Source: a virus. From it: a DNA stretch of 64,000 nucleotides. Below are positions 2,485-52,550 of the stretch, in pieces (positions within the stretch are counted from its first letter, which is position 1; each line of letters opens with the position of its first letter). The notes under the pieces were generated by a model. It had not been told where the DNA came from and ran no database searches. It was given only the letters and a program-made list of their open reading frames with translations. The position numbers and the translations under genes were made by a program. The stretch is from the IMG/VR virus record IMGVR_UViG_3300024327_000005, positions 22 through 64,021 of that record; one strand, 5' to 3'.

Positions 2485-2648
2485 GCGGAAGTAGCTCAAA
2501 GGTAGAGCGTCAACCATACCGGGATAAAAGTGGTGATCAAAAGGGCTAGAAATCCTTGCGGTCGCCACTGAAAGACCAAACGTACGTGCTTTCTAGCGTA
2601 GGGGTAATACAAGTTGAAGGCATGCAGGTTCGAATCCTGTCTTCCGCC
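2485..2648 (+). tRNA. tRNA-like gene (Gly-type acceptor stem) interrupted by a ~91-nt insertion in the anticodon loop; identity uncertain
   Basis: acceptor GCGGAAG/CTTCCGC, D-arm GCTC-AAAGGTA-GAGC, anticodon stem TCAAC(2510-14)/GTTGA(2613-17), T-arm GCAGG-TTCGAAT-CCTGT; 98 nt between the anticodon stem halves instead of 7. Confidence 0.7.
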
Positions 2649-2652
2649 GCAA

Positions 2653-2724
2653 AGACTCTTAGCTCAACGGTAGAGCAGCGGACTTTTAATCCGTTGGCTC
2701 TGGGTTCGAATCCCAGAGGGTCTA
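2653..2724 (+). tRNA. tRNA-Lys(TTT), CCA not encoded
   Basis: full cloverleaf: AGACTCT/AGGGTCT, loop CTTTTAA, T-loop TTCGAAT. Confidence 0.93.
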
Positions 2725-2816: not shown

Positions 2817-2889
2817 GGGCCTATAGCTCAGTGGTTAGAGCTCCCGACTCATAATCGGCAGGTCCCAGGTTCAAATCCTGGTGGGCCCA
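2817..2889 (+). tRNA. tRNA with CAT anticodon, most like Ile2 (lysidine type); elongator Met not excluded; CCA not encoded
   Basis: GGGCCTA/TGGGCCC acceptor, anticodon arm GA-CTCATAA-TC as in bacterial Ile2, T-loop TTCAAAT. Confidence 0.88.
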
Positions 2890-38827: not shown

Positions 38828-39865
38828 ATGGCAAATAAAAAAATTACAGGGATCCCCGAAATTGATATGATTGCAGCTTCTATTGCCAAGAAATTTGGCA
38901 AAGAAGACATTATGAGTTTAGGACCTAAATATGAAAAAGTTACACCAATCTCTACAGGCTCAATATCTTTGGATGCTTGTCTTGGCGTTGGAGGCTTACC
39001 TAATGATCGTGTCGTCGAAATATATGGTCCGCCCAGTGCCGGAAAAACCTCTCTCTGCCTACAAGTACTTAAACAGTTTACAGAAAAATATGGATATGAC
39101 AGACCTCCTGTCTATGTTGATCTTGAACGCACTACTGGTTTGGATCTTGTCACTTCTATGGGGCTCGAACCAAAAAAAATGATTTTTTGTTATCCTGACA
39201 CCGCCGAAGAAGCACTTCAGCTCTGTCAAGACCTTGGTAAGACAGGTAAAGTCGGCATAATAGTTTTTGATAGTATTGACGCTGCTCAAAGCGAAAAAGA
39301 CACAAAAAGATTAATGAATGAAACGGGAGTAGGCGACTTACCTCGCTTACTTTCAAAAGCTTTGCGTTCTATATCCAAGATAAGCGTTGATAACGAATGT
39401 CTATACTTGTTTATTAATCAAGTTAGAATGAAAATTGGCGTTATGTATGGGAACCCAGAAACAACTTCAGGTGGCAACGCCATACCTTTTTACTGCTCGG
39501 TTCGACTTCGAGTAAGCAGTAAGCCCTCTAAAGATCAAGATGGCGCCATAACAATGAAGGTTAAAGTTGTCAAAAACAAAGTTGCTCCCGCTTTAAATAA
39601 AACTGCTGAGTTTGACTTTATATGTGGAAAAGGCACAGATCCTTATTTAGACATAATTGGTTATGCTAAAGACGTAGGGTTGATGAGGTTTGCAGGCTCA
39701 TCCGTCAAGTGGATAAACCCTGCAACAAAAGAAGAAGAGTCTCTTTGTACTGGTGGTAAGCTGGGGGCGAAAAGTCATTTTATTGACAACCCAGAGGACT
39801 ACCAACTGCTATATCATCATATCCTCAGTTCAGATAGAGAAGACGAGAATGAAGATGACGCATGA
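38828..39865 (+). CDS. recA: RecA recombinase
   Basis: STGSISLD, GPPSAGKT, VFDSI, FINQVRMKIGVMYGNPETTSGGNA. Confidence 0.95.
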   Translation: MANKKITGIPEIDMIAASIAKKFGKEDIMSLGPKYEKVTPISTGSISLDACLGVGGLPNDRVVEIYGPPSAGKTSLCLQVLKQFTEKYGYDRPPVYVDLERTTGLDLVTSMGLEPKKMIFCYPDTAEEALQLCQDLGKTGKVGIIVFDSIDAAQSEKDTKRLMNETGVGDLPRLLSKALRSISKISVDNECLYLFINQVRMKIGVMYGNPETTSGGNAIPFYCSVRLRVSSKPSKDQDGAITMKVKVVKNKVAPALNKTAEFDFICGKGTDPYLDIIGYAKDVGLMRFAGSSVKWINPATKEEESLCTGGKLGAKSHFIDNPEDYQLLYHHILSSDREDENEDDA

Positions 39866-41183
39866 CTGCTCCAGGCATACAGCTAAAAATAGTCAGGATA
39901 TAACCTCCAACCACACTGAGTCAAAGTATGTACATCTACATGTGCACACAGAATACTCTTTGCTTGATGGCATAAATAAGGTCTCTAGGCTCCCATCTTT
40001 TGTTAAAACTATGAATCAGCCAGCAGTTGCAATGACAGATCATGGTAACATTTCTGGGTGTTATAGGTTTTACAAAGAGTGCAACAAAGTAAATGTTAAG
40101 CCCATAATAGGCATGGAAGCTTACTATTCCATTAACGACAGAACTCTTCGAGAGCCAGACGAAATGGGAAAGAGCTATTACCACTTAATCCTTTTGGCTC
40201 AAAATAATATTGGCTTACACAACTTAATAAAGCTGTCCTCTAAAGCCTATACCACTGGCTTCTATAGGAAGCCTAGGATTGATGATAAACTTCTTGCAGA
40301 CCACTCGGAAGGTCTAATCGCTACCACTACTTGCTTGGGTAGTCGCGCCTCTCAGCTGATACTAAATAACGAAATTACTGCAGCCGAAAAATTAATTCAT
40401 CATCATCGAGCCATATTCAAAGATAGATTCATCGTTGAATTACAATTGCACCGAGAAGAAGAACAGCAGGCTGTAAATAAAGTCTTGCAGCAAATCGCTT
40501 TAAAAAACAACTTCCCGATGATAGTCACAAACGATTGTCATTACGCTTATGAGCATGATAAAATGCATCATGAAGCAGCATTATGCTTGCAGACTAAGAC
40601 AACGTTGTCGAATCCAAAGAGGTTTTCATTTGGTGAAATAAAAGTTCATATGGCAGATCATGACTGGATGTGGAACGAATCTTCAAATCAAGGAATGCCA
40701 TACGACGTTATTTCGAACACTGTCGAACTTGCGAATATGATAGATTCAGACACTTATTTTATGGACAGGATGAACAGGTACCCGAAGTTTAAAGACCTTC
40801 CCGAAGGTTATACTAGCATTGACTTTTTAGCTCTAGAAAGCCAGCATGGACTATTCAATAGGTTTGGTCAGATGCCGACTTTGGAATATCAAAACAGATT
40901 GACTCATGAACTTAATGTAATCAAAAAGATGGGATTCTCTGACTACCTGTTGATTGTAGCTCAGTTTATGGATGGAGCGCGAACAAGAGGTGTCCTTCAT
41001 GGGCCTGGTCGTGGCTCTGCTGCAGGGTCCCTAATCGCTTATGCACTAGGCATCACTGAAGTTGATCCAATCAAATACGGTTTAATCTTTGAAAGATTTT
41101 TAAATGAAGGTCGAGGAGCTACCCCTCTGATCTTCAACAAGCAAATGGCCATCAAAGCAGATGGCATAACTATACCTTTTTAA
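39849..41183 (+). CDS. dnaE: DNA polymerase III alpha (DnaE) part 1: PHP domain through the GRGS/FERFLN palm segment
   Basis: HLHVHTEYSLLDG, TDHGN, TNDCHY, GPGRGSAAGSLIAY, FERFLNEGR, then a short tail and stop. Confidence 0.9.
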   Translation: MKMTHDCSRHTAKNSQDITSNHTESKYVHLHVHTEYSLLDGINKVSRLPSFVKTMNQPAVAMTDHGNISGCYRFYKECNKVNVKPIIGMEAYYSINDRTLREPDEMGKSYYHLILLAQNNIGLHNLIKLSSKAYTTGFYRKPRIDDKLLADHSEGLIATTTCLGSRASQLILNNEITAAEKLIHHHRAIFKDRFIVELQLHREEEQQAVNKVLQQIALKNNFPMIVTNDCHYAYEHDKMHHEAALCLQTKTTLSNPKRFSFGEIKVHMADHDWMWNESSNQGMPYDVISNTVELANMIDSDTYFMDRMNRYPKFKDLPEGYTSIDFLALESQHGLFNRFGQMPTLEYQNRLTHELNVIKKMGFSDYLLIVAQFMDGARTRGVLHGPGRGSAAGSLIAYALGITEVDPIKYGLIFERFLNEGRGATPLIFNKQMAIKADGITIPF

Positions 41184-41943: not shown

Positions 41944-43566
41944 ATGGATCAAAAAAGAAAAGAAATATTACAGTACATTGATAAATGTATTATAGATGAA
42001 AGAATTAATCAAGTAGACCCTGATTTCCTAGAGTTTGAAATTAAAATGTCTTCTTTAAAAGATTTACAAATGATTTCAGACTGCTTGTATTCAGTTGCGA
42101 ACCTTCAAGATAAAGATCTTCACTTACCAATTTTCGCTAACAACCCCTATAATAGTATCTTACTTTATATAACTAGGTTGACAGATGAATTTGATTTTTT
42201 AAAAGCCAGGTCAAATACTATAGACGGATCTCCTCCTGATATTGATATTGACCATGATGCTTTAGATCGAGAAATTGCAATCGAGTGGTGTGCTGATTAT
42301 TGGGGTCAAGATAAAGTAGCGAATATAATAACGCACGGAACCTTTAAGCCAAAAAGTCTTGCTCGCTCTTATTATCGAATCACTGAAAAAGAGTCTGAAG
42401 ATTTAAGCGAGCTGTTAAAGAAGATTCCTCCACCTAAGTTTGGTAAGGAAGCTACATTAGAAGAGGTTCTTGAATTGAACCCTGAAGTTAAAGACGATGA
42501 GAGATATGGAGACTTCTTGGAATTCGCTGACAGGATAGAGGGCATGGTATCTAATTTTGGTATCCATGCCGCTGGAATTATCATTAGTGATAACGACATA
42601 GATGATATAGTCCCGCTATGGAAGAATAAAAAAGCTGAAAGAATAACTCAATTCGACAAAGACGAATGTGAAGAGTTAGGTCTGATTAAATTCGACTTCT
42701 TGGGAATAGATACTCTTTCTATAATTAAAGAGTGTGTGAGCCTTGTTGAAGAAAACCATGATGTTAAATTAAATCCATACGCTATTGAAGATTTTGACGA
42801 AGCCACATATGCCACATTAGACAAAGGCTTACTCACAGGAGTCTTTCAGATGGAAACTTCTGGCGTGGCTAAAAAGCTCATTGTAAAAATTAAACCAAGA
42901 TCTATAGAAGATTTATCTGCTATTTCTGCTTTGAACAGACCAGGTCCGCTACAAGCGGGACTCGACAAAGAATACATAATCAACAAATATAATAACGCTC
43001 CACCATCAAGTCTTCCAGAAAACATAGCTAACATTTTAAAAAGTTCATACTGGACTCTTGTCTATCAGGAGCAAGTTATGGAAATCTGTTCTAGTATCGC
43101 TGGGTTCACTCCCAAAGAAGCCGATGACATTAGGAGAGCTATGGGCAAGAAGAAAGTAGAAGTACTCAACGAGTATCAAAAGAAATTTGTAACTGGGTGT
43201 ATTTCTGTAGGTGGCTTATCAGAATCCTATAGTCAAGACCTATGGGAAAACCTTGTGGGATTCGCAGACTACTGCCTGCATGGAAGCACAAAGATCAAGG
43301 CTCAAGGTGGAGCCTTAAGTATTGAAAGTATTGTTAAAAACAAAATTCCTGCGACTATCGTTTCTGCTGATACTAATTCTGAAAGATTTTATTTACAAAG
43401 AGTTGCTCAATGGTATGAAAAAGGCAAAAAGAAATGTTATAAGTACGTAACAGATACTGGAGCTGAGATTTCTTGCACTCCAGAACATAAATTTTTAACT
43501 ATTAATAACGAAATGGTTGAAATTGAATCCATATATGAACGAAACTTAATATTAAAAACACAATAA
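41944..43566 (+). CDS. dnaE: DnaE part 2: catalytic palm/thumb/fingers fused to split-intein IntN
   Basis: PPDIDID, HAAG, KFDFLG, GVFQME, LNRPGP, VYQEQVM, RRAMGKK, FADY|CL. Confidence 0.92.
   Translation: MDQKRKEILQYIDKCIIDERINQVDPDFLEFEIKMSSLKDLQMISDCLYSVANLQDKDLHLPIFANNPYNSILLYITRLTDEFDFLKARSNTIDGSPPDIDIDHDALDREIAIEWCADYWGQDKVANIITHGTFKPKSLARSYYRITEKESEDLSELLKKIPPPKFGKEATLEEVLELNPEVKDDERYGDFLEFADRIEGMVSNFGIHAAGIIISDNDIDDIVPLWKNKKAERITQFDKDECEELGLIKFDFLGIDTLSIIKECVSLVEENHDVKLNPYAIEDFDEATYATLDKGLLTGVFQMETSGVAKKLIVKIKPRSIEDLSAISALNRPGPLQAGLDKEYIINKYNNAPPSSLPENIANILKSSYWTLVYQEQVMEICSSIAGFTPKEADDIRRAMGKKKVEVLNEYQKKFVTGCISVGGLSESYSQDLWENLVGFADYCLHGSTKIKAQGGALSIESIVKNKIPATIVSADTNSERFYLQRVAQWYEKGKKKCYKYVTDTGAEISCTPEHKFLTINNEMVEIESIYERNLILKTQ
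43273..43563 (+). other. split intein N-half (97 aa), DnaE type
   Basis: CL..T.I...VAQW...G...T.EHKF.T...I.ER.L matches cyanobacterial Npu/Ssp DnaE IntN; block B TxxH present. Confidence 0.92.
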
Positions 43567-44408: not shown

Positions 44409-47117
44409 ATGGCTACAAGAAGAACTGACTTACGCAAAGGGGCAATTGACAGCTCTGTCATAACCCAGATTACAAATACCGTCATAGCACAAGTATCAGG
44501 ATCAATTGGTGCAACTGGACCTGCTGGTGCAACTGGACCTCAGGGGACCCAAGGTCAAGCTGGGGCACAAGGCTCACAAGGACCAACAGGCAATGTAGGT
44601 CCTGTGGGCCCCACAGGTGACAGTGGAATTCAAGGCTCACAAGGATCGACGGGCAACGATGGCTCTGTTGGGCCTCAAGGCCTCACTGGCGTTCAAGGAC
44701 CTACAGGCGATGCCGGTGCACAAGGAATCCAAGGCCCCCTGGGGCCTCAAGGTGCCACTGGAGACGATGGCGCTACAGGGCTTCAAGGTATTCAGGGAAT
44801 AACAGGCAACGACGGTGCTACAGGTCCTCAGGGCGTTCAAGGCGATACAGGGCCTCAAGGTGCTGCTGGAAATGATGGAGCTCAAGGTAATCCAGGTTCC
44901 ACTGGAGCTACTGGCCCACAGGGCGCCACTGGCGCTGACGGAATCGACGGAGCAACAGGGCCTCAAGGCGACACTGGCGCAACTGGTCCTACTGGCGCTA
45001 CGGGTCCACAAGGAGCAACAGGAACTAACGGTTCTAACGGAATCGACGGAGCTCAAGGCCCCACAGGGGCTCAAGGCGTTGACGGTCCACAAGGGATTCA
45101 AGGACCCGTTGGTGCCGATGGTGCAACTGGTGCTGACGGAGCAGTTGGACCCCAAGGGGCGACTGGCAACGATGGTGCTCAAGGCGTTGCTGGCCCAACA
45201 GGCGTTGCTGGCCCAACAGGCGCTGACGGAACCGACGGAGCAAATGGAGTGCAAGGCTCAACGGGTGATACTGGTGCAACAGGACCGGCAGGCGCAACTG
45301 GGTCAACTGGCCCCAGAGGCGACGCATTCGCTATAGACCAAACAGGAGTCTTAATCGAGAGTGCTATTAGTAGTATTCAGGCTACCTCTTCAATCACTGC
45401 ACAAAATCCATACTTCTTTGTTATCACTACTGACAGCAGATCTGATAGTAGTACGCCGAGTCCTTTAGCTGGCGATATGTCTGGACATCTTGTTGTCTAT
45501 GATGGGAGTGTTTGGTCTGATTTCGGTCAGTTTACAGGTACAAAAGGTGATACTGGCGATACGGGGACTCAAGGTCCCCAGGGAGCTCAGGGAGTTGTCG
45601 GTGCCACTGGAGCAGCAGGGAGCACAGGCCCTCAAGGTGACGTGGGTTCTACTGGTCCTGCAGGAGCAACTGGACCTCAAGGAATTCAAGGCGATACAGG
45701 TCCTCAAGGTGTTCAAGGTACCGCTGGGATCACAGGCCCTCAAGGAGCTACAGGATCTGCTGGGGCTGCTGGTAGTACCGGTCCTCAAGGGGACGCGGGT
45801 TCTACTGGACCAACAGGTGCAACAGGCCCACAAGGTGTGCAGGGTGATACAGGACCAACCGGACCGCAAGGCGACACTGGAGCTGCTGGACCAACAGGCA
45901 CTCAAGGCGTCCAGGGTCCCACTGGAGACACGGGCTCAACAGGATCTACTGGGGCCACAGGACTGCAAGGTGATACTGGGACGACCGGAAGTACCGGATC
46001 TCAAGGCCCCACCGGGGCAACAGGCCCTGTAGGAGCAACTGGATCTCAAGGAATTCAAGGGCCTCAAGGCGATGCTGGAGCTACAGGGTCCGTTGGGGCA
46101 ACAGGCCCTATAGGAAACACTGGCGTCCAAGGTCCCGCTGGAGACACGGGAACCCAGGGAGTAACAGGGCCTCAAGGCGACACCGGCGCTACAGGAGCGG
46201 CTGGAGCTACAGGACCGACCGGCGCTACAGGAGCGGCTGGTGCCGGTGCAAACAATGCAACTATTGCGACCACTCTTTCTACCCACAGTGGCTTTATAGC
46301 AAGCGTTGGGGATGACCTAGCAGCAGACACCAGCTTCCAAGCGAGCGTCAAAGGTGATACAGGGGCAACTGGACTCCAAGGGAGTATTGGGGCTACAGGA
46401 CCGCAAGGAGACCAGGGCCTCACTGGAGTAACAGGAGCTACTGGTCCTGTTGTGATTGCAACAGCAAGCATTCTTGGTGGTGTTAAGATTAATGGGAATA
46501 ACCTTTCTATTAATGCTTCTGGAGTCCTATCTTCTGAAGACACAGCGTTACATTCACAAGTTGATCAAATAGAAACAACTATAGGCTTAGCTACTGGAGG
46601 CACGTTAGGTTCTTGGGCCAATCATGCTAACTACAGTGTAGCAGCAACTGTTAAAGCAGCTATTGAAGGGGTTGATGAGCAAGTTAGGTTGCAAACAATT
46701 AACATAACTTCTCTTAACTCATTAGGAAATCTTCACGAAACTGCTATTGGGATTAGTTCTACAGGTAACTATGAAAGTAGAAGTGGCACAAACTATATAG
46801 ATAGCGCAACAGATGTTGTTGGAGAAGCTACTCTACTTGATGCGCAGGTTAAAACCAATGCAGATAATATTGATCTTTTAGAAATTAGAGGCGGCGGATT
46901 GCTTATGGAAACGACGACCGCGGGAATATATCTTCCAGATACAATAATGCTATCAAGTCATGCAGGGCCATTTAGGATTGATTTCGCACAAGCAATAGCG
47001 AATAGTGGTGCTGCCGATTTGACATTCTATGGAACCAAAGCAAAAACACACGAAGATCGACATTTTACAATAGACACCACAACTGGCGACATTACCTTTA
47101 CAGGTACTACACTTTAA
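44409..47117 (+). CDS. collagen-like fibre protein (~180 Gly-X-Y triplets in three blocks)
   Basis: GAT/GPQ/GPT triplets at about 44496-45323, 45538-46250 and 46352-46450; [15 protein letters not shown] linker. Confidence 0.92.
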
Positions 47118-47149: not shown

Positions 47150-50100
47150 ATGGCAAAAATAAAACCTGAAACATCCGGAGATCATGACCTCGGAGACAGC
47201 TCCTTTAAGTGGGGCGCCGTGCACACGGTGCACGTCGAAACAGAAACCTTGACTACCTCTGGGAATCTTGTTGTAGGCGGTACGCTAACCGTAACCGGAT
47301 CAAACATTGTTGCTGAAGTGACAACTATAGCAGCAGAAGATCCGCTTATAAGTCTTGCAAAAGACAATACTGGCGATGTATTCGATATCGGATTCTATGG
47401 AAAAGCTGTTAATGGTTCTTCTGAAACCGATTATCATGGTTTTGTTAGAGCTGCATCTGATGGTAAATTCAAAATCTTTAAAAATGCGTCTGCCGAACCT
47501 ACTACAACTGTAGGCTCCCATGAAGTAGCCACGCTTGTGGCTGATCTTGAAGTTCCTAACGGAAGCTCTCTAAAAGTTCCTCAAGCCAATGGGACTCCAA
47601 TAGATTACATTACTGCTGTAACTTTAGGTACTGCTCAGGCTAATAAAGTTCTTACTGTAGACAATAGTAAAAATCTCACTGGAATTAATAATATCACTGC
47701 TTCTGGTACGATCCAAGCTGGTAATGTTTTGATTTCAGGAAGCGCAATTAGCACTTCTGGAGGTGCAGCTCCTTCTTTTGAAGAAGTTGCTATCACTGGT
47801 GGCTCTATTGATGGTACAACTATTGGTGGTACAACTGCAGCTGCTGTTACTGCGACTACTTTAAGTGCAAGTAGTGCTACTGTTAGCGGTACAACAACTT
47901 TGCAAGGAGCAGTTACGCTAGGCAATGCTGCTGCAGACGATATTACCGTAACAGGTAGTCTTGCATCTAGTGTAGTTCCAAAAGTAGATGGAACTCATGA
48001 TCTGGGTACTAATGCACTAAGAATGCGCCATGTCTATTCAGACAACATTACAGCAACTACTATCAATGCATTTGCTGCTGGTGGGGCTGTAAATTTCAAT
48101 AATCAAGATATGACTAATGTAAAAATTACTAGTGGTAGTATTTCTGGTTCCGACGTTACTGTTGGCGTAGGTAAGACTCTCAACGTTTCAGCTGGCACTA
48201 TTACTTTTGCTGCAGGCCAAGTCTCTAATACTGATTTAGCTACGATTAATACTGCTGGTAAAGTTTCACTTGGTGCTTTAGATATTGATGGTGCGGATGA
48301 AATGGACGCTGCTATCGCTGATGCCGACCTGCTCATTATTGATGATGGTGGCAACGGTATAGAAAAATCTATGTTAGCATCTCGCATCCCCACTTATGTT
48401 ATTTCAAAACTAAGCGGTGGAACTGGCGTTGCCCATCTTAATGGTACGTTTAGTATCGGTCAAGCAGTTGCGACTACTGATGATGTTACTTTTAGTACTG
48501 TCACTGCAACTACTTTTTCTGGTGTAGTAACTAGCATCTCTAATCATACAACTCAAAATCTCACAGAGCATTCTGACAACAAGTATTACACTGATGAAAG
48601 AGTAGACGATAGAGTTAGTGAGTTACTAAGCGACGGCCAAGCAATTGGTCTTAGTTATGCTGACAATGGAGCTGGAGCTTTAACAATTGCAGTCGATACT
48701 GCTACTGCTTCAACTTTAGGTGTAGCTTCTTTTTCAGGTGACAACTTCCTTGTTTCAAGTGGTGCTGTAACTATCAAGGATGGCGGTATTGCAAATGCTG
48801 AGTTAGCTCAAAGCGCCATGAGTATTGCAGGTCAATCAGTTTCACTTGGCGCTAGTATTACTGCAGCATCTATAGCTGCTGCTATCGGTGGCGAAGCTAT
48901 GGAATTAACAGCTGTTACCGATCTTGATAGTCCTCAAAGTAACTTGACAATCTTTAACACTAATAATGCTAGTCGTACACTTACGATAGGTGCTGTAAAT
49001 GGTACTATTGCGATTCCAGGTGATCTTGATCTTACAGGAGATATGAAAGACGATCTCAATCTTGTAGCAACAAAGAAGTATCAGATTGCTGGTACTGATG
49101 TTTTGTCTGCCACTACTCTCGGAAGCGGTGTTGTCGCTTCTAGCCTTACTTCAGTAGGTGCTCTTGCCTCAGGTAGTATTGCTTCTGGTTTTGGAACCAT
49201 CTCTACTGCAAGTAATATCTCTACTACTCAAGTTATTAATTTAGCTACAGACGCAGATATAGACGGCTATTCCGCAGACAGTGCAACCGGCAGACTTACT
49301 TTAGGCACGAGTAACGATCTAAGCCTTTATCATGGTGGAACTAATTCTTATATTGTCAATAAAGTTGGCGAACTTCGGCTTGACGCTCCTTTTTCTAGTG
49401 AGATTTCACTCTCTATAGCTGGTGCTGAAGAGGCGCATATCGATGCTGACGGTATCGATCTTGCTAGTGGTAATGACTACAGAATTAATAATGCGTCTGT
49501 ACTTTCAGCTACTACTCTCGGTTCAGGTGTAGTTGCTTCAAGCTTGACTACTGTGGGTGCTTTGGATTCAGGTAGTATTACTAATGGATTCACGTCCATT
49601 GATGTTGGTTCAGGTGCAATCACAACAACTGGAACTCTTACTGGGGGAATCCTGGCGGTTGATGATATTCAGATTAACGGATCTAATATTGGGCACACCG
49701 ATGATATTGACCTGCTTACTGTTGCAAGTGGAACCCTTACTGTTGCAGGGCGTGTAGATTTAACTACACTCGCTATTGGTAGTACTGATATTACTGCTGA
49801 CGCAACTGAACTGAATTATGTTGATGGAGTTACAAGTAACATCCAAACACAGCTTGATGCTAAAGCTCCAGCGGCCAATCCAATCTTCTCAGGCACCATT
49901 ACTTTTGGTAACGCAGTGATTAGCGAAGCAGAGCTAGAAATTCTCGACGGTGCGTTAATTTCCACTACCGAACTAAATCATCTTAACAATGCTTCTGGCT
50001 CTATCCAGACACAGCTTGATGCTAAACAAGGCCTAAACACTCAACTTACTACGCTTTCAACCAGCCTGACAGCAGCTGTTGCCACAGAGCTTGTTGCGTT

Positions 50101-50740
50101 AGCCGATGGGGAGATTGAAGTTCTTGATGGCGCAACTCCTGGTTCAGCAGTTGCAAGTAAAGCTCTTGTGGTCAATGGTTCTAAAAACATTGGCACTCTC
50201 GGTACTGTTACTCTTGGTACTCTTACTGATGGTACTGCTACTTTGACTGGCGGTGCACTAACCAGCTTAACAAAGCTTACTGTAGACAATTTGCAATTAA
50301 ACGCCAATGATCTTAAATCTACCTCTGGTGATTTAAATCTAAACTCTGCAAGTGGTGACGTTAAAATAGCAGCTGGAGTTGATCTTACATTATTGTCTGG
50401 GGGTAATATTACTGCTGATGGCAATGTTAGCATTAACGGTCTTTTGGAAACTGATGGAGTTAGACGAAAAACTTTAATCAAAACCGATTCTTATACTATT
50501 GTTGGTGACGACCATACTATTCTATTCAACGTAGAGTCGGATAGTACTTGCACTTTGGCTACTTCTAACGATTCCGACATGGTTTCTAAAGAGTATGTAA
50601 TCAAAAATGTGGGCTCAAATACTATAACTTTTGCTTCCACCAGTCAGATTGATGGAAGCCCTGCTTCCAACACTACGCTTACTGCAGGACAAAAAATAAA
50701 AGTTATAGGTACAGCAGCATTTGGTTGGCAGTCAATTTAA
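47150..50740 (+). CDS. large tail-fibre or virion fibre-like protein with internal repeats
   Basis: P....HDLG....W motif twice; VLSATTLGSGVVASSLT twice; TELN....IQTQLDAK twice; T/G/S/A-rich. Confidence 0.7.
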   Translation: MAKIKPETSGDHDLGDSSFKWGAVHTVHVETETLTTSGNLVVGGTLTVTGSNIVAEVTTIAAEDPLISLAKDNTGDVFDIGFYGKAVNGSSETDYHGFVRAASDGKFKIFKNASAEPTTTVGSHEVATLVADLEVPNGSSLKVPQANGTPIDYITAVTLGTAQANKVLTVDNSKNLTGINNITASGTIQAGNVLISGSAISTSGGAAPSFEEVAITGGSIDGTTIGGTTAAAVTATTLSASSATVSGTTTLQGAVTLGNAAADDITVTGSLASSVVPKVDGTHDLGTNALRMRHVYSDNITATTINAFAAGGAVNFNNQDMTNVKITSGSISGSDVTVGVGKTLNVSAGTITFAAGQVSNTDLATINTAGKVSLGALDIDGADEMDAAIADADLLIIDDGGNGIEKSMLASRIPTYVISKLSGGTGVAHLNGTFSIGQAVATTDDVTFSTVTATTFSGVVTSISNHTTQNLTEHSDNKYYTDERVDDRVSELLSDGQAIGLSYADNGAGALTIAVDTATASTLGVASFSGDNFLVSSGAVTIKDGGIANAELAQSAMSIAGQSVSLGASITAASIAAAIGGEAMELTAVTDLDSPQSNLTIFNTNNASRTLTIGAVNGTIAIPGDLDLTGDMKDDLNLVATKKYQIAGTDVLSATTLGSGVVASSLTSVGALASGSIASGFGTISTASNISTTQVINLATDADIDGYSADSATGRLTLGTSNDLSLYHGGTNSYIVNKVGELRLDAPFSSEISLSIAGAEEAHIDADGIDLASGNDYRINNASVLSATTLGSGVVASSLTTVGALDSGSITNGFTSIDVGSGAITTTGTLTGGILAVDDIQINGSNIGHTDDIDLLTVASGTLTVAGRVDLTTLAIGSTDITADATELNYVDGVTSNIQTQLDAKAPAANPIFSGTITFGNAVISEAELEILDGALISTTELNHLNNASGSIQTQLDAKQGLNTQLTTLSTSLTAAVATELVALADGEIEVLDGATPGSAVASKALVVNGSKNIGTLGTVTLGTLTDGTATLTGGALTSLTKLTVDNLQLNANDLKSTSGDLNLNSASGDVKIAAGVDLTLLSGGNITADGNVSINGLLETDGVRRKTLIKTDSYTIVGDDHTILFNVESDSTCTLATSNDSDMVSKEYVIKNVGSNTITFASTSQIDGSPASNTTLTAGQKIKVIGTAAFGWQSI

Positions 50741-51287: not shown

Positions 51288-51401
51288 ATGAAAATAATTT
51301 CAAAGGAGTACCTTGGAGAAGAAGAAGTTTATGATATTGGTGTAGCTTCTTTGGAAGGCAATCATAACTTTGTTCTCGAGAATGGAATTATAGCTTCTAA
51401 T
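51288..51401 (+). other. split intein C-half (38 aa)
   Basis: MKIISKEYLGEEEVYDIGV...HNFVLENGIIASN then Cys+1; compare Npu MIKIATRKYLGKQNVYDIGVERDHNFALKNGFIASN. Confidence 0.93.
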
Positions 51402-52550
51402 TGCTTTAATAAAGCACATAGCGTTAGCTACTCCATACTCACTTATGTAAGCGCGTATATGAAGACGCATTACCCTGTGGAGTTTTTTACTGCGTTGATG
51501 TCCACAAGAAGTAAAACTTTACAGCCTAAATCCTGGGCAATTAAAGCTCCTGAATACATTCAAGAAGCTAAAAAGTTTGGTGTGCATGTGTATCCGCCAT
51601 TTGTTAATCAAAGCGGATACGAATTCACAATCAGTGATGGCGAGATATACTTTGGGCTCAATGCAATCAGAGACGTCGGCAAGACTGCTGCTCGTATGAT
51701 TATTAAAGCTCGACAAAAAACACCCTTTAAATCTGTTAAAGATTTTATTTCAAGAATTAACCTTCAAAAAGTAAATACAAAAACGTTCGATGCTCTTGTT
51801 AAGGCTGGTGCCTTCGATAAGCTAGGTTACGATAGAGCAGGACTTCTAGAGAAGTGCCCTTTAATTTACGCATACGTAAGAGATCTTGAAGACTACAAGC
51901 AGCGCCAGTTAGACGTTGTGGAGCGAGACAATTACAACAACCAAGTTGTTCCGCTTATAGAGCGTAGAAACTTTCTTAGAAAAGAACTTAAGAAAATACA
52001 GAACAGAATTGATAAAGATAAAGTAAAAGAGAATGACATAGACAATTTTCATCTCATGTCTGAGGAACTAGAACCATTAGAAGCTGAGAACTTAAAGAAA
52101 AAAGTCTCTCTAAAGCCGAAAGAGAAGCCTGAGTTCCCCGAACTTCTTAAGTCAGATTCTATTGAGCTAGGTATGGAAGAGATATTAAATCAAGCAAATT
52201 ACATTGGTTGTTACATTGGTGGACACCCACTAGATTTGATATCAATTAAAAAAGACGACCTGGATTCATTAGAGGAAGGTGACTACGCTAACGTCGCTGG
52301 TGTCATCCTTTCTATGAAAGAGATTACAACAAGAAAAAACAAACAGATGGCTTTCGTTGAAATTAATGATAAAACTAGTTCAGCTGAAATTGTTATTTTT
52401 CCACAGCTATGGAAAAAAGTTTCAAGTCTAGGCTTAAAAGAAACTACAATCGTTACCTGCAAGGTAAAGGTTGAGCAAGTTGAGCCAGATATAAAGCTTA
52501 TTTTAAATTCAATTAATATTTATAAGGACTTTTATGAGATGGACTCCTGA
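51288..52550 (+). CDS. dnaE: DnaE part 3: split-intein IntC fused to C-terminal fingers, HhH and OB domains
   Basis: IASN|CFNKAH, HYPVEF, FGLNAIRDVG, KAGAFD, IGGHPLD, MAFVEINDKTSSAEIVIFP. Confidence 0.92.
   Translation: MKIISKEYLGEEEVYDIGVASLEGNHNFVLENGIIASNCFNKAHSVSYSILTYVSAYMKTHYPVEFFTALMSTRSKTLQPKSWAIKAPEYIQEAKKFGVHVYPPFVNQSGYEFTISDGEIYFGLNAIRDVGKTAARMIIKARQKTPFKSVKDFISRINLQKVNTKTFDALVKAGAFDKLGYDRAGLLEKCPLIYAYVRDLEDYKQRQLDVVERDNYNNQVVPLIERRNFLRKELKKIQNRIDKDKVKENDIDNFHLMSEELEPLEAENLKKKVSLKPKEKPEFPELLKSDSIELGMEEILNQANYIGCYIGGHPLDLISIKKDDLDSLEEGDYANVAGVILSMKEITTRKNKQMAFVEINDKTSSAEIVIFPQLWKKVSSLGLKETTIVTCKVKVEQVEPDIKLILNSINIYKDFYEMDS

Follow-up and report, generated by a model that had tools for sequence, protein, structure and literature searches.

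A tRNA-shaped phage gene with a conserved folded insert in place of its anticodon loop

A phage gene that shows every arm of a tRNA and has a long insert where the anticodon loop should be raises the question of whether it is a decayed tRNA, a precursor from which an intron is removed, or a carrier of some other RNA function. Such a gene was found in the window, i.e. the whole stretch of 64,000 nt analysed here, which makes up nearly all of a 65.5-kb IMG/VR record (CheckV completeness ~40%). The window encodes a ribonucleotide reductase, a primase-helicase, a DnaE-type polymerase in three separate reading frames, ThyX, PhoH, a ThiF-family protein, a TonB C-terminal domain protein, an amidase endolysin, RecA and ClpP. 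Judged from this gene content (TonB, amidase and RecA), the host is a Gram-negative bacterium. The DNA of the window is present in many seawater metagenomes, while no cultured phage is close to it, the closest cultured-phage polymerase being at most 42% identical.

Positions 2485-2648 hold a real tRNA-shaped gene, which is the first member of a three-gene tRNA cluster (Table 1) and for which a promoter scan upstream returned no sigma-70-like site. The Rfam tRNA model RF00005 covered it end to end with 46.8 bits (cut-off of 29) and placed a 97-nt insertion in the anticodon loop, this match appearing only with permissive filters and being missed at the Rfam gathering filters. ARAGORN at default settings did not call the gene, and with the intron option (-i) reported a tRNA-Val(tac) with a 91-nt intron. 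Two of the checks proposed in the original prediction, an intron-aware tRNA search and a comparison with Rfam, both recovered the tRNA body, and the insert was left without a family. The coordinates given there, including the 98 nt between the anticodon stem halves (2510-2514 and 2613-2617), agreed throughout with the sequence. Moreover, folding was stronger than in shuffled controls both for the whole gene (z = -3.65) and for the insert alone (z = -3.37).

Table 1. Coordinates of the tRNA-shaped gene, its structural elements and the neighbouring tRNA genes (positions in the window).
Feature	Position	Strand	Remarks
Whole tRNA-shaped gene, 164 nt	2485..2648	+	No encoded CCA; found with Rfam RF00005 and ARAGORN -i
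Acceptor stem, 5' strand	2485..2491	+	Pairs with 2641-2647; discriminator at 2648
D arm	2494..2508	+	Stem invariant, loop variable
Anticodon stem, 5' strand UCAAC	2510..2514	+	Pairs with 2613-2617 GUUGA; invariant in all variants
5' linker, C32 and one extra base (A or C)	2515..2516	+	Extra base missing in L002
P1, 5' strand	2517..2520	+	Pairs with 2603-2606; helix closing the insert; 100% paired
J1/2 strand GGGAUAAA	2521..2528	+	Nearly invariant
P2 hairpin	2529..2569	+	P2a, internal loop, P2b, loop L2
P2a, lower P2	2529-2538/2560-2569	+	
P2b, upper P2	2541-2545/2553-2557	+	Loop L2 = 2546-2552
J2/3 strand	2570..2580	+	ACCAAAC invariant
P3 hairpin	2581..2602	+	Stem 2581-2587/2596-2602, loop L3 2588-2595
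Kissing helix, L2 with L3	2547-2552 with 2590-2595	+	100% paired
3' side of former anticodon loop, A-UAC-AA	2607..2612	+	ACACAU in L002, GUACAA in L004
T arm	2624..2640	+	C50:G64 to U:A in L002
tRNA-Lys(UUU), second gene of the cluster	2653..2724	+	Starts 4 nt 3' of the tRNA-shaped gene
tRNA-Met(CAU), third gene of the cluster	2817..2889	+	

The original prediction had drawn three helices within the insert, and all of them were found: TACC/GGTA (2517-20/2603-06), AGTGGTGA/TCGCCACT (2529-36/2562-69) and GCTAGAAA/TTTCTAGC (2545-52/2590-97). The last two do cross, as described, although an additional helix absent from that list, P3, recasts the proposed pseudoknot as a kissing contact between two hairpin loops. 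P3 adjoins P1 directly, without a linker, in a P1 and P3 stack of 11 bp. The sequence of P3 and its loop was constant but for one position in L3 and one in P3, and a G2582.G2601 mismatch in P3 was particular to the window, being G.U in the other five aligned sequences. The kissing helix comprised 6-7 bp and could reach 8 bp in the window. Given the insert without the tRNA body, RNAalifold independently recovered P1, P2 and P3 and added two GG/CC pairs, in which the first two G of J1/2 may pair with CC at 2576-2577; these pairs are invariant, and their formation is predicted. Furthermore, the structure has many G.U pairs, which would read C.A on the opposite strand, so that the structured molecule is the RNA of the + strand. 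Altogether, the sequences support a fold of the insert in which P1 closes it, P2 forms a long hairpin, P3 stacks on P1 and the loops of P2 and P3 kiss.

A similar layout is known from three-helix 'tuning-fork' aptamers such as the purine riboswitch, with P1 on P3, P2 alongside and a contact between L2 and L3. The insert shares with the purine riboswitch the P1/P3 stack, the parallel P2, the L2/L3 contact and conserved junction strands, but differs in having 6-7 Watson-Crick kissing pairs, no expression platform and no sequence or model match. Comparison with the 4227 Rfam families gave nothing for the insert, even at E values up to 10 on 118 nt. The insert is thus, as far as alignment and models tell, a compact RNA fold supported by covariation and with no matching Rfam family.

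Homologues were obtained by two routes, one leading from the neighbouring proteins to contigs of ENA, JGI and Logan, and the other being one metagenome pattern scan, which yielded two further homologues. A total of seven distinct variants of the gene were found in marine metagenomes, six of them 88-94% identical to the window and the seventh, L002, 77% identical. The L002 form appeared letter for letter in five independent assemblies (L002 and L243-L246) and is therefore a maintained allele. The named structure was then scored on a six-sequence alignment in which effectively one sequence is distant: 97.5% of the cells were standard pairs, against 38-46% when the partners were slid by 1-3 columns. 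Six pairs were changed on both sides, one each in the acceptor stem, P1, P2a, P2b, the kissing helix (A-U to G-C in L002) and the T stem. All seven acceptor pairs were kept in every variant, G1:C72 becoming A:U in L004 and G.U in L002, and in the elbow contact of L002 the alignment showed G19 changed to A together with T-loop C56 to U, giving A19:U56. Between the window and L002, P2 was only 56% identical, yet 92% of its cells were paired and two pairs were changed on both sides, and P1 retained its pairing at 50% identity (UACC/GGUA in the window, CAUC/GAUG in L002, UGCC/GGUA in L004 and UAUC/GGUA in L005). At 88%, the core of the insert (J1/2, J2/3 and P3/L3) was as similar as the exons (88%), the value for the adjacent tRNA-Lys being 64/72. 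Almost no variation was seen in P3, in the GG/CC pairs and in the junction strands, and the pairs drawn there are predicted.

Since P1 and P2 drift with their pairing kept, and the core is as conserved as the exons and tRNA-Lys, the insert is a selected folded RNA domain and not a product of decay. The original prediction had named the lack of covariation in the insert helices as the mark of a decayed pseudo-tRNA; both these helices and the tRNA arms covary, which argues against decay. The divergence is small, with a single distant sequence among six, and the persistence of A35-C36-A37 and the junction strands may in part be due to the little time elapsed. A decaying tRNA pseudogene with a neutral insertion, for instance a small mobile repeat, and without function would account for the non-canonical position 33 and the mixed Gly/Val identity described below, and for the related phage L009, in which tRNA-Lys(UUU) alone occupies the homologous place (1556-2186) and the tRNA-shaped gene is missing. 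However, the six both-sided changes, the 97.5% of cells paired and a core conserved as much as the neighbouring working tRNAs speak against it. The ATAC repeat noted earlier at both borders is present in the window-type variants and absent in L002 and L005, and without conservation it is not a target-site duplication. Moreover, a model built from the insert (R1) found only the family itself, and no second copy, in the window and ~1.6 Mb of fetched loci, the element being single-copy. A neutral origin is therefore regarded as highly improbable.

Exact and gapped DNA patterns of the gene had no match in IMG/VR, and of 99 genome and 3 viral DNA-pattern matches none was scored as real by model R1. 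Two weak matches of this model in Flavobacteriaceae (L082 and L052, ~18-19 bits) were rejected, P3 being missing altogether. As for the surroundings, L009 lacks, in its stretch 1556-2186, a Val-like gene, tRNA-Met and any homologue of the downstream 182-aa ORF. Strict co-occurrence of this neighbouring 182-aa protein with the tRNA-shaped RNA was not seen, and the protein had no relatives in IMG/VR and no Pfam or PHROG family.

The tRNA body was examined for its ancestry and identity marks. A scan of viral and prokaryotic collections for tRNAs that share the acceptor stem and the beginning of the D arm brought up 241 sequences; 238 of them were called as tRNA-Gly and 240 carried U73. The best tRNA match to the joined exons was identical at 61 of 73 positions, and where the two differed in the anticodon and T stems the changes were compensatory. 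The acceptor had indeed been described at first as Gly-like with C73, and by its sequence the tRNA body descends from a tRNA-Gly gene. According to the established E. coli identity rules, the main marks for GlyRS are U73 and C35, and both are changed here, U73 to C (A in L004) and C35 to A. Most variants had C as the discriminator (2648), whereas L004 had A, and G:C, A:U and G.U all occurred as the 1:72 pair. The resulting set is incoherent for any one amino acid, combining a Gly-type body, a Val-type anticodon and, in most variants, C73. On the other hand, the cloverleaf was kept in all variants, with the acceptor, D, anticodon and T arms paired and the elbow contact maintained.

A canonical 7-nt anticodon loop with U33 is absent from 2485-2648. 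The insert is followed by A-UAC-AA in the window, by A-CAC-AU in L002 and by G-UAC-AA in L004, and the sole rule giving a 7-nt loop in all variants is to join C32 to these six bases, which leaves A or G at position 33. Under every excision rule applied to the alignment, position 33 was A, G or C and never U; the TAC anticodon that had been predicted for precise excision is also the one that ARAGORN -i calls in the window. Excision in the style of RNase P and RNase Z was rejected, as it leaves a 6-nt loop in L002 and A or C at position 33, and L3 is tied up in Watson-Crick kissing and does not form a T loop. In a tRNA that decodes, U33, the discriminator and the identity pairs would be expected not to vary. 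In the present gene it is the helices and the elbow that stay constant while these marks drift, a pattern that fits an RNA selected for tRNA shape and not for decoding, and the aligned variants argue that the body is under selection of this kind.

These observations led us to favour, if with somewhat less than even confidence, a non-decoding, tRNA-scaffolded functional RNA derived from tRNA-Gly, in which the insert is retained as the working module. It is preferred to an intron because shape is what appears to be selected, the glycine marks are lost, position 33 is never U and the 91-nt insert is conserved, folded and without a family. The tRNA half would be kept so that the cellular tRNA-end enzymes cut the RNA out of the transcript of the tRNA cluster, and it would further provide for CCA addition and stability of the RNA, possibly being bound by tRNA-binding proteins as well. 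The 91-nt insert would not be removed and would stay in the mature RNA as its working part, with P1 and P3 stacked, P2 alongside and the loops of P2 and P3 kissing. The single strands of the junction would form a putative site for a specific partner, most likely a host or phage protein and possibly a small molecule. The original prediction had left three options, an unusual tRNA intron, a small ribozyme or a tRNA-scaffolded decoy against anticodon nucleases; a functional module on a tRNA scaffold is the part that we retain, whereas the specific role as such a decoy is a weak candidate, since the insert destroys the very loop that such nucleases recognize.

Carriers of this kind have counterparts. 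In YrlA-type Y RNA (RF02553) and in tmRNA, as proposed here, a tRNA-shaped part serves processing, stability or recognition and the function lies in another part, and the artificial 'tRNA scaffold' used for expressing RNAs likewise makes the tRNA part carry another functional RNA. However, YrlA has a closed acceptor and carries its termini within the Ro-binding stem, while the present gene has normal tRNA ends and a module that replaces the loop; the YrlA model matched the T arm alone, with only 17 bits (cut-off of 69). YrlA-type Y RNA usually adjoins an rsr (TROVE) gene, and no member of the TROVE, RtcB or Rnl2 families was found in the 65.5-kb record, which represents ~40% of the genome; the missing TROVE/Ro gene counts against a retained module within that scope. 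Further points against the retained module are that every insertion in a tRNA anticodon loop is, to our knowledge, an intron, that the six bases 3' of the insert still hold a valine anticodon (UAC or CAC) followed by A37, and that C32 together with these bases makes an ordinary 7-nt loop except at position 33.

A true intron is accordingly the main competitor, which we consider possible but rather unlikely. The RNA would be cut after C32 and after P1 and the exons joined into a 73-nt tRNA-Val (anticodon UAC, or CAC in L002), which would decode GUN codons for the phage, the insert being removed either by its own catalysis, as a new small ribozyme, or by proteins, with cuts by nucleases of the cell or the phage and joining by an RNA ligase. 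It is kept for the precedent of anticodon-loop introns, the leftover valine anticodon with A37, the juxtaposition of both borders beside the anticodon stem by P1, and the short unexplained introns published from phage tRNA genes (Devoto et al. 2019, PMC6784885). In addition, ARAGORN -i yields a clean tRNA-Val(tac) when the 91 nt are taken out. The single rule of C32, insert and six bases gives every variant, in spite of an indel, a 7-nt loop with an NAC anticodon followed by A37, and the core is conserved, as would be expected of a ribozyme intron.

Against these points stand the properties of the product and the lack of a route to it. Position 33 of the tRNA would be occupied by A, G or C, its body would be that of a tRNA-Gly, it would carry C73 where ValRS prefers A73, and its discriminator differs among close relatives. 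Valine codon use does not follow the anticodon: GUA and GUG make up 29% and 11% of the valine codons in the window and 35% and 21% in L002, where GUG is thus a minority codon despite the CAC anticodon. No insert-less allele was found by a DNA search with the joined exons, the matches being tRNA-Thr, tRNA-Arg or non-tRNAs. An RNA-library contig (X19) covers 2369-2581, including the 5' leader, unspliced and at 100% identity, and may represent precursor RNA or DNA carry-over; among the contigs compared with the locus, none showed a joint across the insert, a result neutral on splicing. Neither an RtcB nor an Rnl2 ligase accompanies the gene in the part of the genome recovered. With a bacterial host, an intron would lack any known mechanism; of the intron suggested at the outset, then, what stands is a rival with ARAGORN support, burdened by this lack and by a purine or C at position 33.

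The known classes of tRNA intron were compared one by one. Group I introns of bacterial and phage tRNAs, such as those of tRNA-Leu(UAA) and Azoarcus tRNA-Ile, are ~200 nt or longer, are built on a P3-P9 core, show U.G pairing at the 5' splice site and end in G. The insert resembles them in its anticodon-loop site and in being a structured, conserved RNA. However, it had been judged too short for this class, and rightly so: its 91 nt lie far below the size of group I and group II introns, it has no P3-P9 core and no Rfam intron or ribozyme match, a conserved U is missing at the 5' border, and the 3' border is preceded by A, or by G in L002. Archaeal and eukaryal tRNA introns are recognized by a bulge-helix-bulge, with two 3-nt bulges on opposite strands and 4 bp apart. 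The earlier failure to fit this motif is explained by the unpaired stretches of the insert (1-2 nt and 6 nt), which face each other on the same side of P1. Closer are the tRNA genes of Lak megaphages, which contain 'enigmatic' short introns whose removal is unexplained (Devoto et al. 2019, PMC6784885). There too, an insert outside group I, short and highly conserved, interrupts the anticodon loop of a phage tRNA, but intron-less alleles exist and one of the inserts looks like a tRNA (PMC6784885), while the present insert belongs to a marine phage of ~160 kb, has no intron-less allele that we could find, adopts a three-helix kissing-loop fold and sits in a loop without U33.

Catalysis by the insert was considered in two forms. 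In the first, it would be a new class of small catalytic intron that cuts at both ends of P1 and joins the exons alone or with a host ligase, which we hold to be improbable. In the second, slightly less probable still, it would be a self-cleaving ribozyme only, which cuts in or near the former anticodon loop and leaves tRNA halves or a fragment without rejoining them; the compact pseudoknotted fold and the conserved junction strands are what could be expected of it, but a gene yielding only a broken tRNA has no evident use. HDV-like ribozymes have a nested double pseudoknot (P1-P2-P3-P1.1(-P4)) and cleave at their own 5' end, while twister has a P1-L1-P2-P4 layout with pseudoknots between L4 and the internal loops and conserved core bases. 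No twister, HDV-like, hammerhead, pistol, hatchet or twister-sister model matched 118 nt at E values up to 10. The resemblance to HDV-ribozyme L3 seen at first found no support either, the helices backed by the alignment being kissing hairpins and not of the nested kind. The 12-mer GGAUAAAAGUGG at 2521-2532 is shared with the rice Osa-1-4 twister ribozyme (P4 to P2 linker) and might favour a cleaving ribozyme; however, the string lies in another topology, with a pseudoknot strand in a terminal and not an internal loop, and the three Rfam twister models gave no match. Twister was thus discarded with this 12-mer as the sole likeness, which is probably due to chance. In favour of a cleaving ribozyme, small self-cleaving theta ribozymes, of the minimal HDV-like kind, are found directly downstream of phage tRNAs, whose trailers they trim (Kienbeck et al. 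2024, PMC10879173). Like them, the insert is small, structured and physically tied to a phage tRNA gene, but it lies inside the anticodon loop, could not be fitted to the nested double pseudoknot and matched no model.

The readings differ in what they would mean. If the insert is retained, a phage would naturally use a tRNA as the carrier of a functional RNA, as biotechnology does deliberately, and the gene would add to the rising number of phage tRNA look-alikes with a possible effect on tRNA-binding or defence proteins of the host. If it is removed, a route of tRNA splicing not yet known in bacteria or phages would exist, and a catalytic intron would be the first self-removing tRNA intron of bacteria or phages outside groups I and II. 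In either case, the insert is small enough for direct biochemical and structural work. Literature searches returned no description of the present RNA.

Other unusual tRNA-shaped genes were seen in phages. Four of them, from IMG/VR (L128, - strand, ~2469-2584; L181, 3206-3323; L191, 10733-10850; and L194, - strand) have a normal anticodon arm and a ~60-nt insert in the variable region, with the loop CAUUUAA (UUU anticodon, A at position 33) in the first three and GAGUUAA in L194. In L162 (3508-3621) and L166 (- strand), the anticodon arm is lengthened by a stem of ~12 bp, whose cap resembles a circularly permuted tRNA (T arm, then D arm). Moreover, L144 (13109-13247), L179 (1363-1497) and L127 (- strand) are also tRNA-shaped, with an intact acceptor stem and with the D and T arms 90-110 nt apart; the anticodon arm of L179 reads GAU, and its extra ~80 nt lie in the variable region.

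Within the window, the three frames of the DnaE-type polymerase (39753-41183, 41944-43566 and 51288-52550) correspond to profile positions 14-443, 441-790 and 790-1055, respectively. A 0.76-kb gap separates the first two and a 7.7-kb stretch the last two, the latter containing a 902-aa collagen-repeat, tail-fibre-like gene (44409-47117, GC 0.50) and a 1196-aa ORF without a family (47150-50740). Finally, an element of ~70 nt lies between tRNA-Lys and tRNA-Met (2735-2809) and is nearly identical in all relatives, being found at 9700-9775 in L002, 4590-4665 in L004 and 330-260 on the - strand of L005. Its Rfam match was at chance level (icaR 5'UTR, 27 bits against a cut-off of 88). Where other genes are inserted, as in L005, it travels with tRNA-Met, and the element could represent a small RNA or a promoter of the phage.
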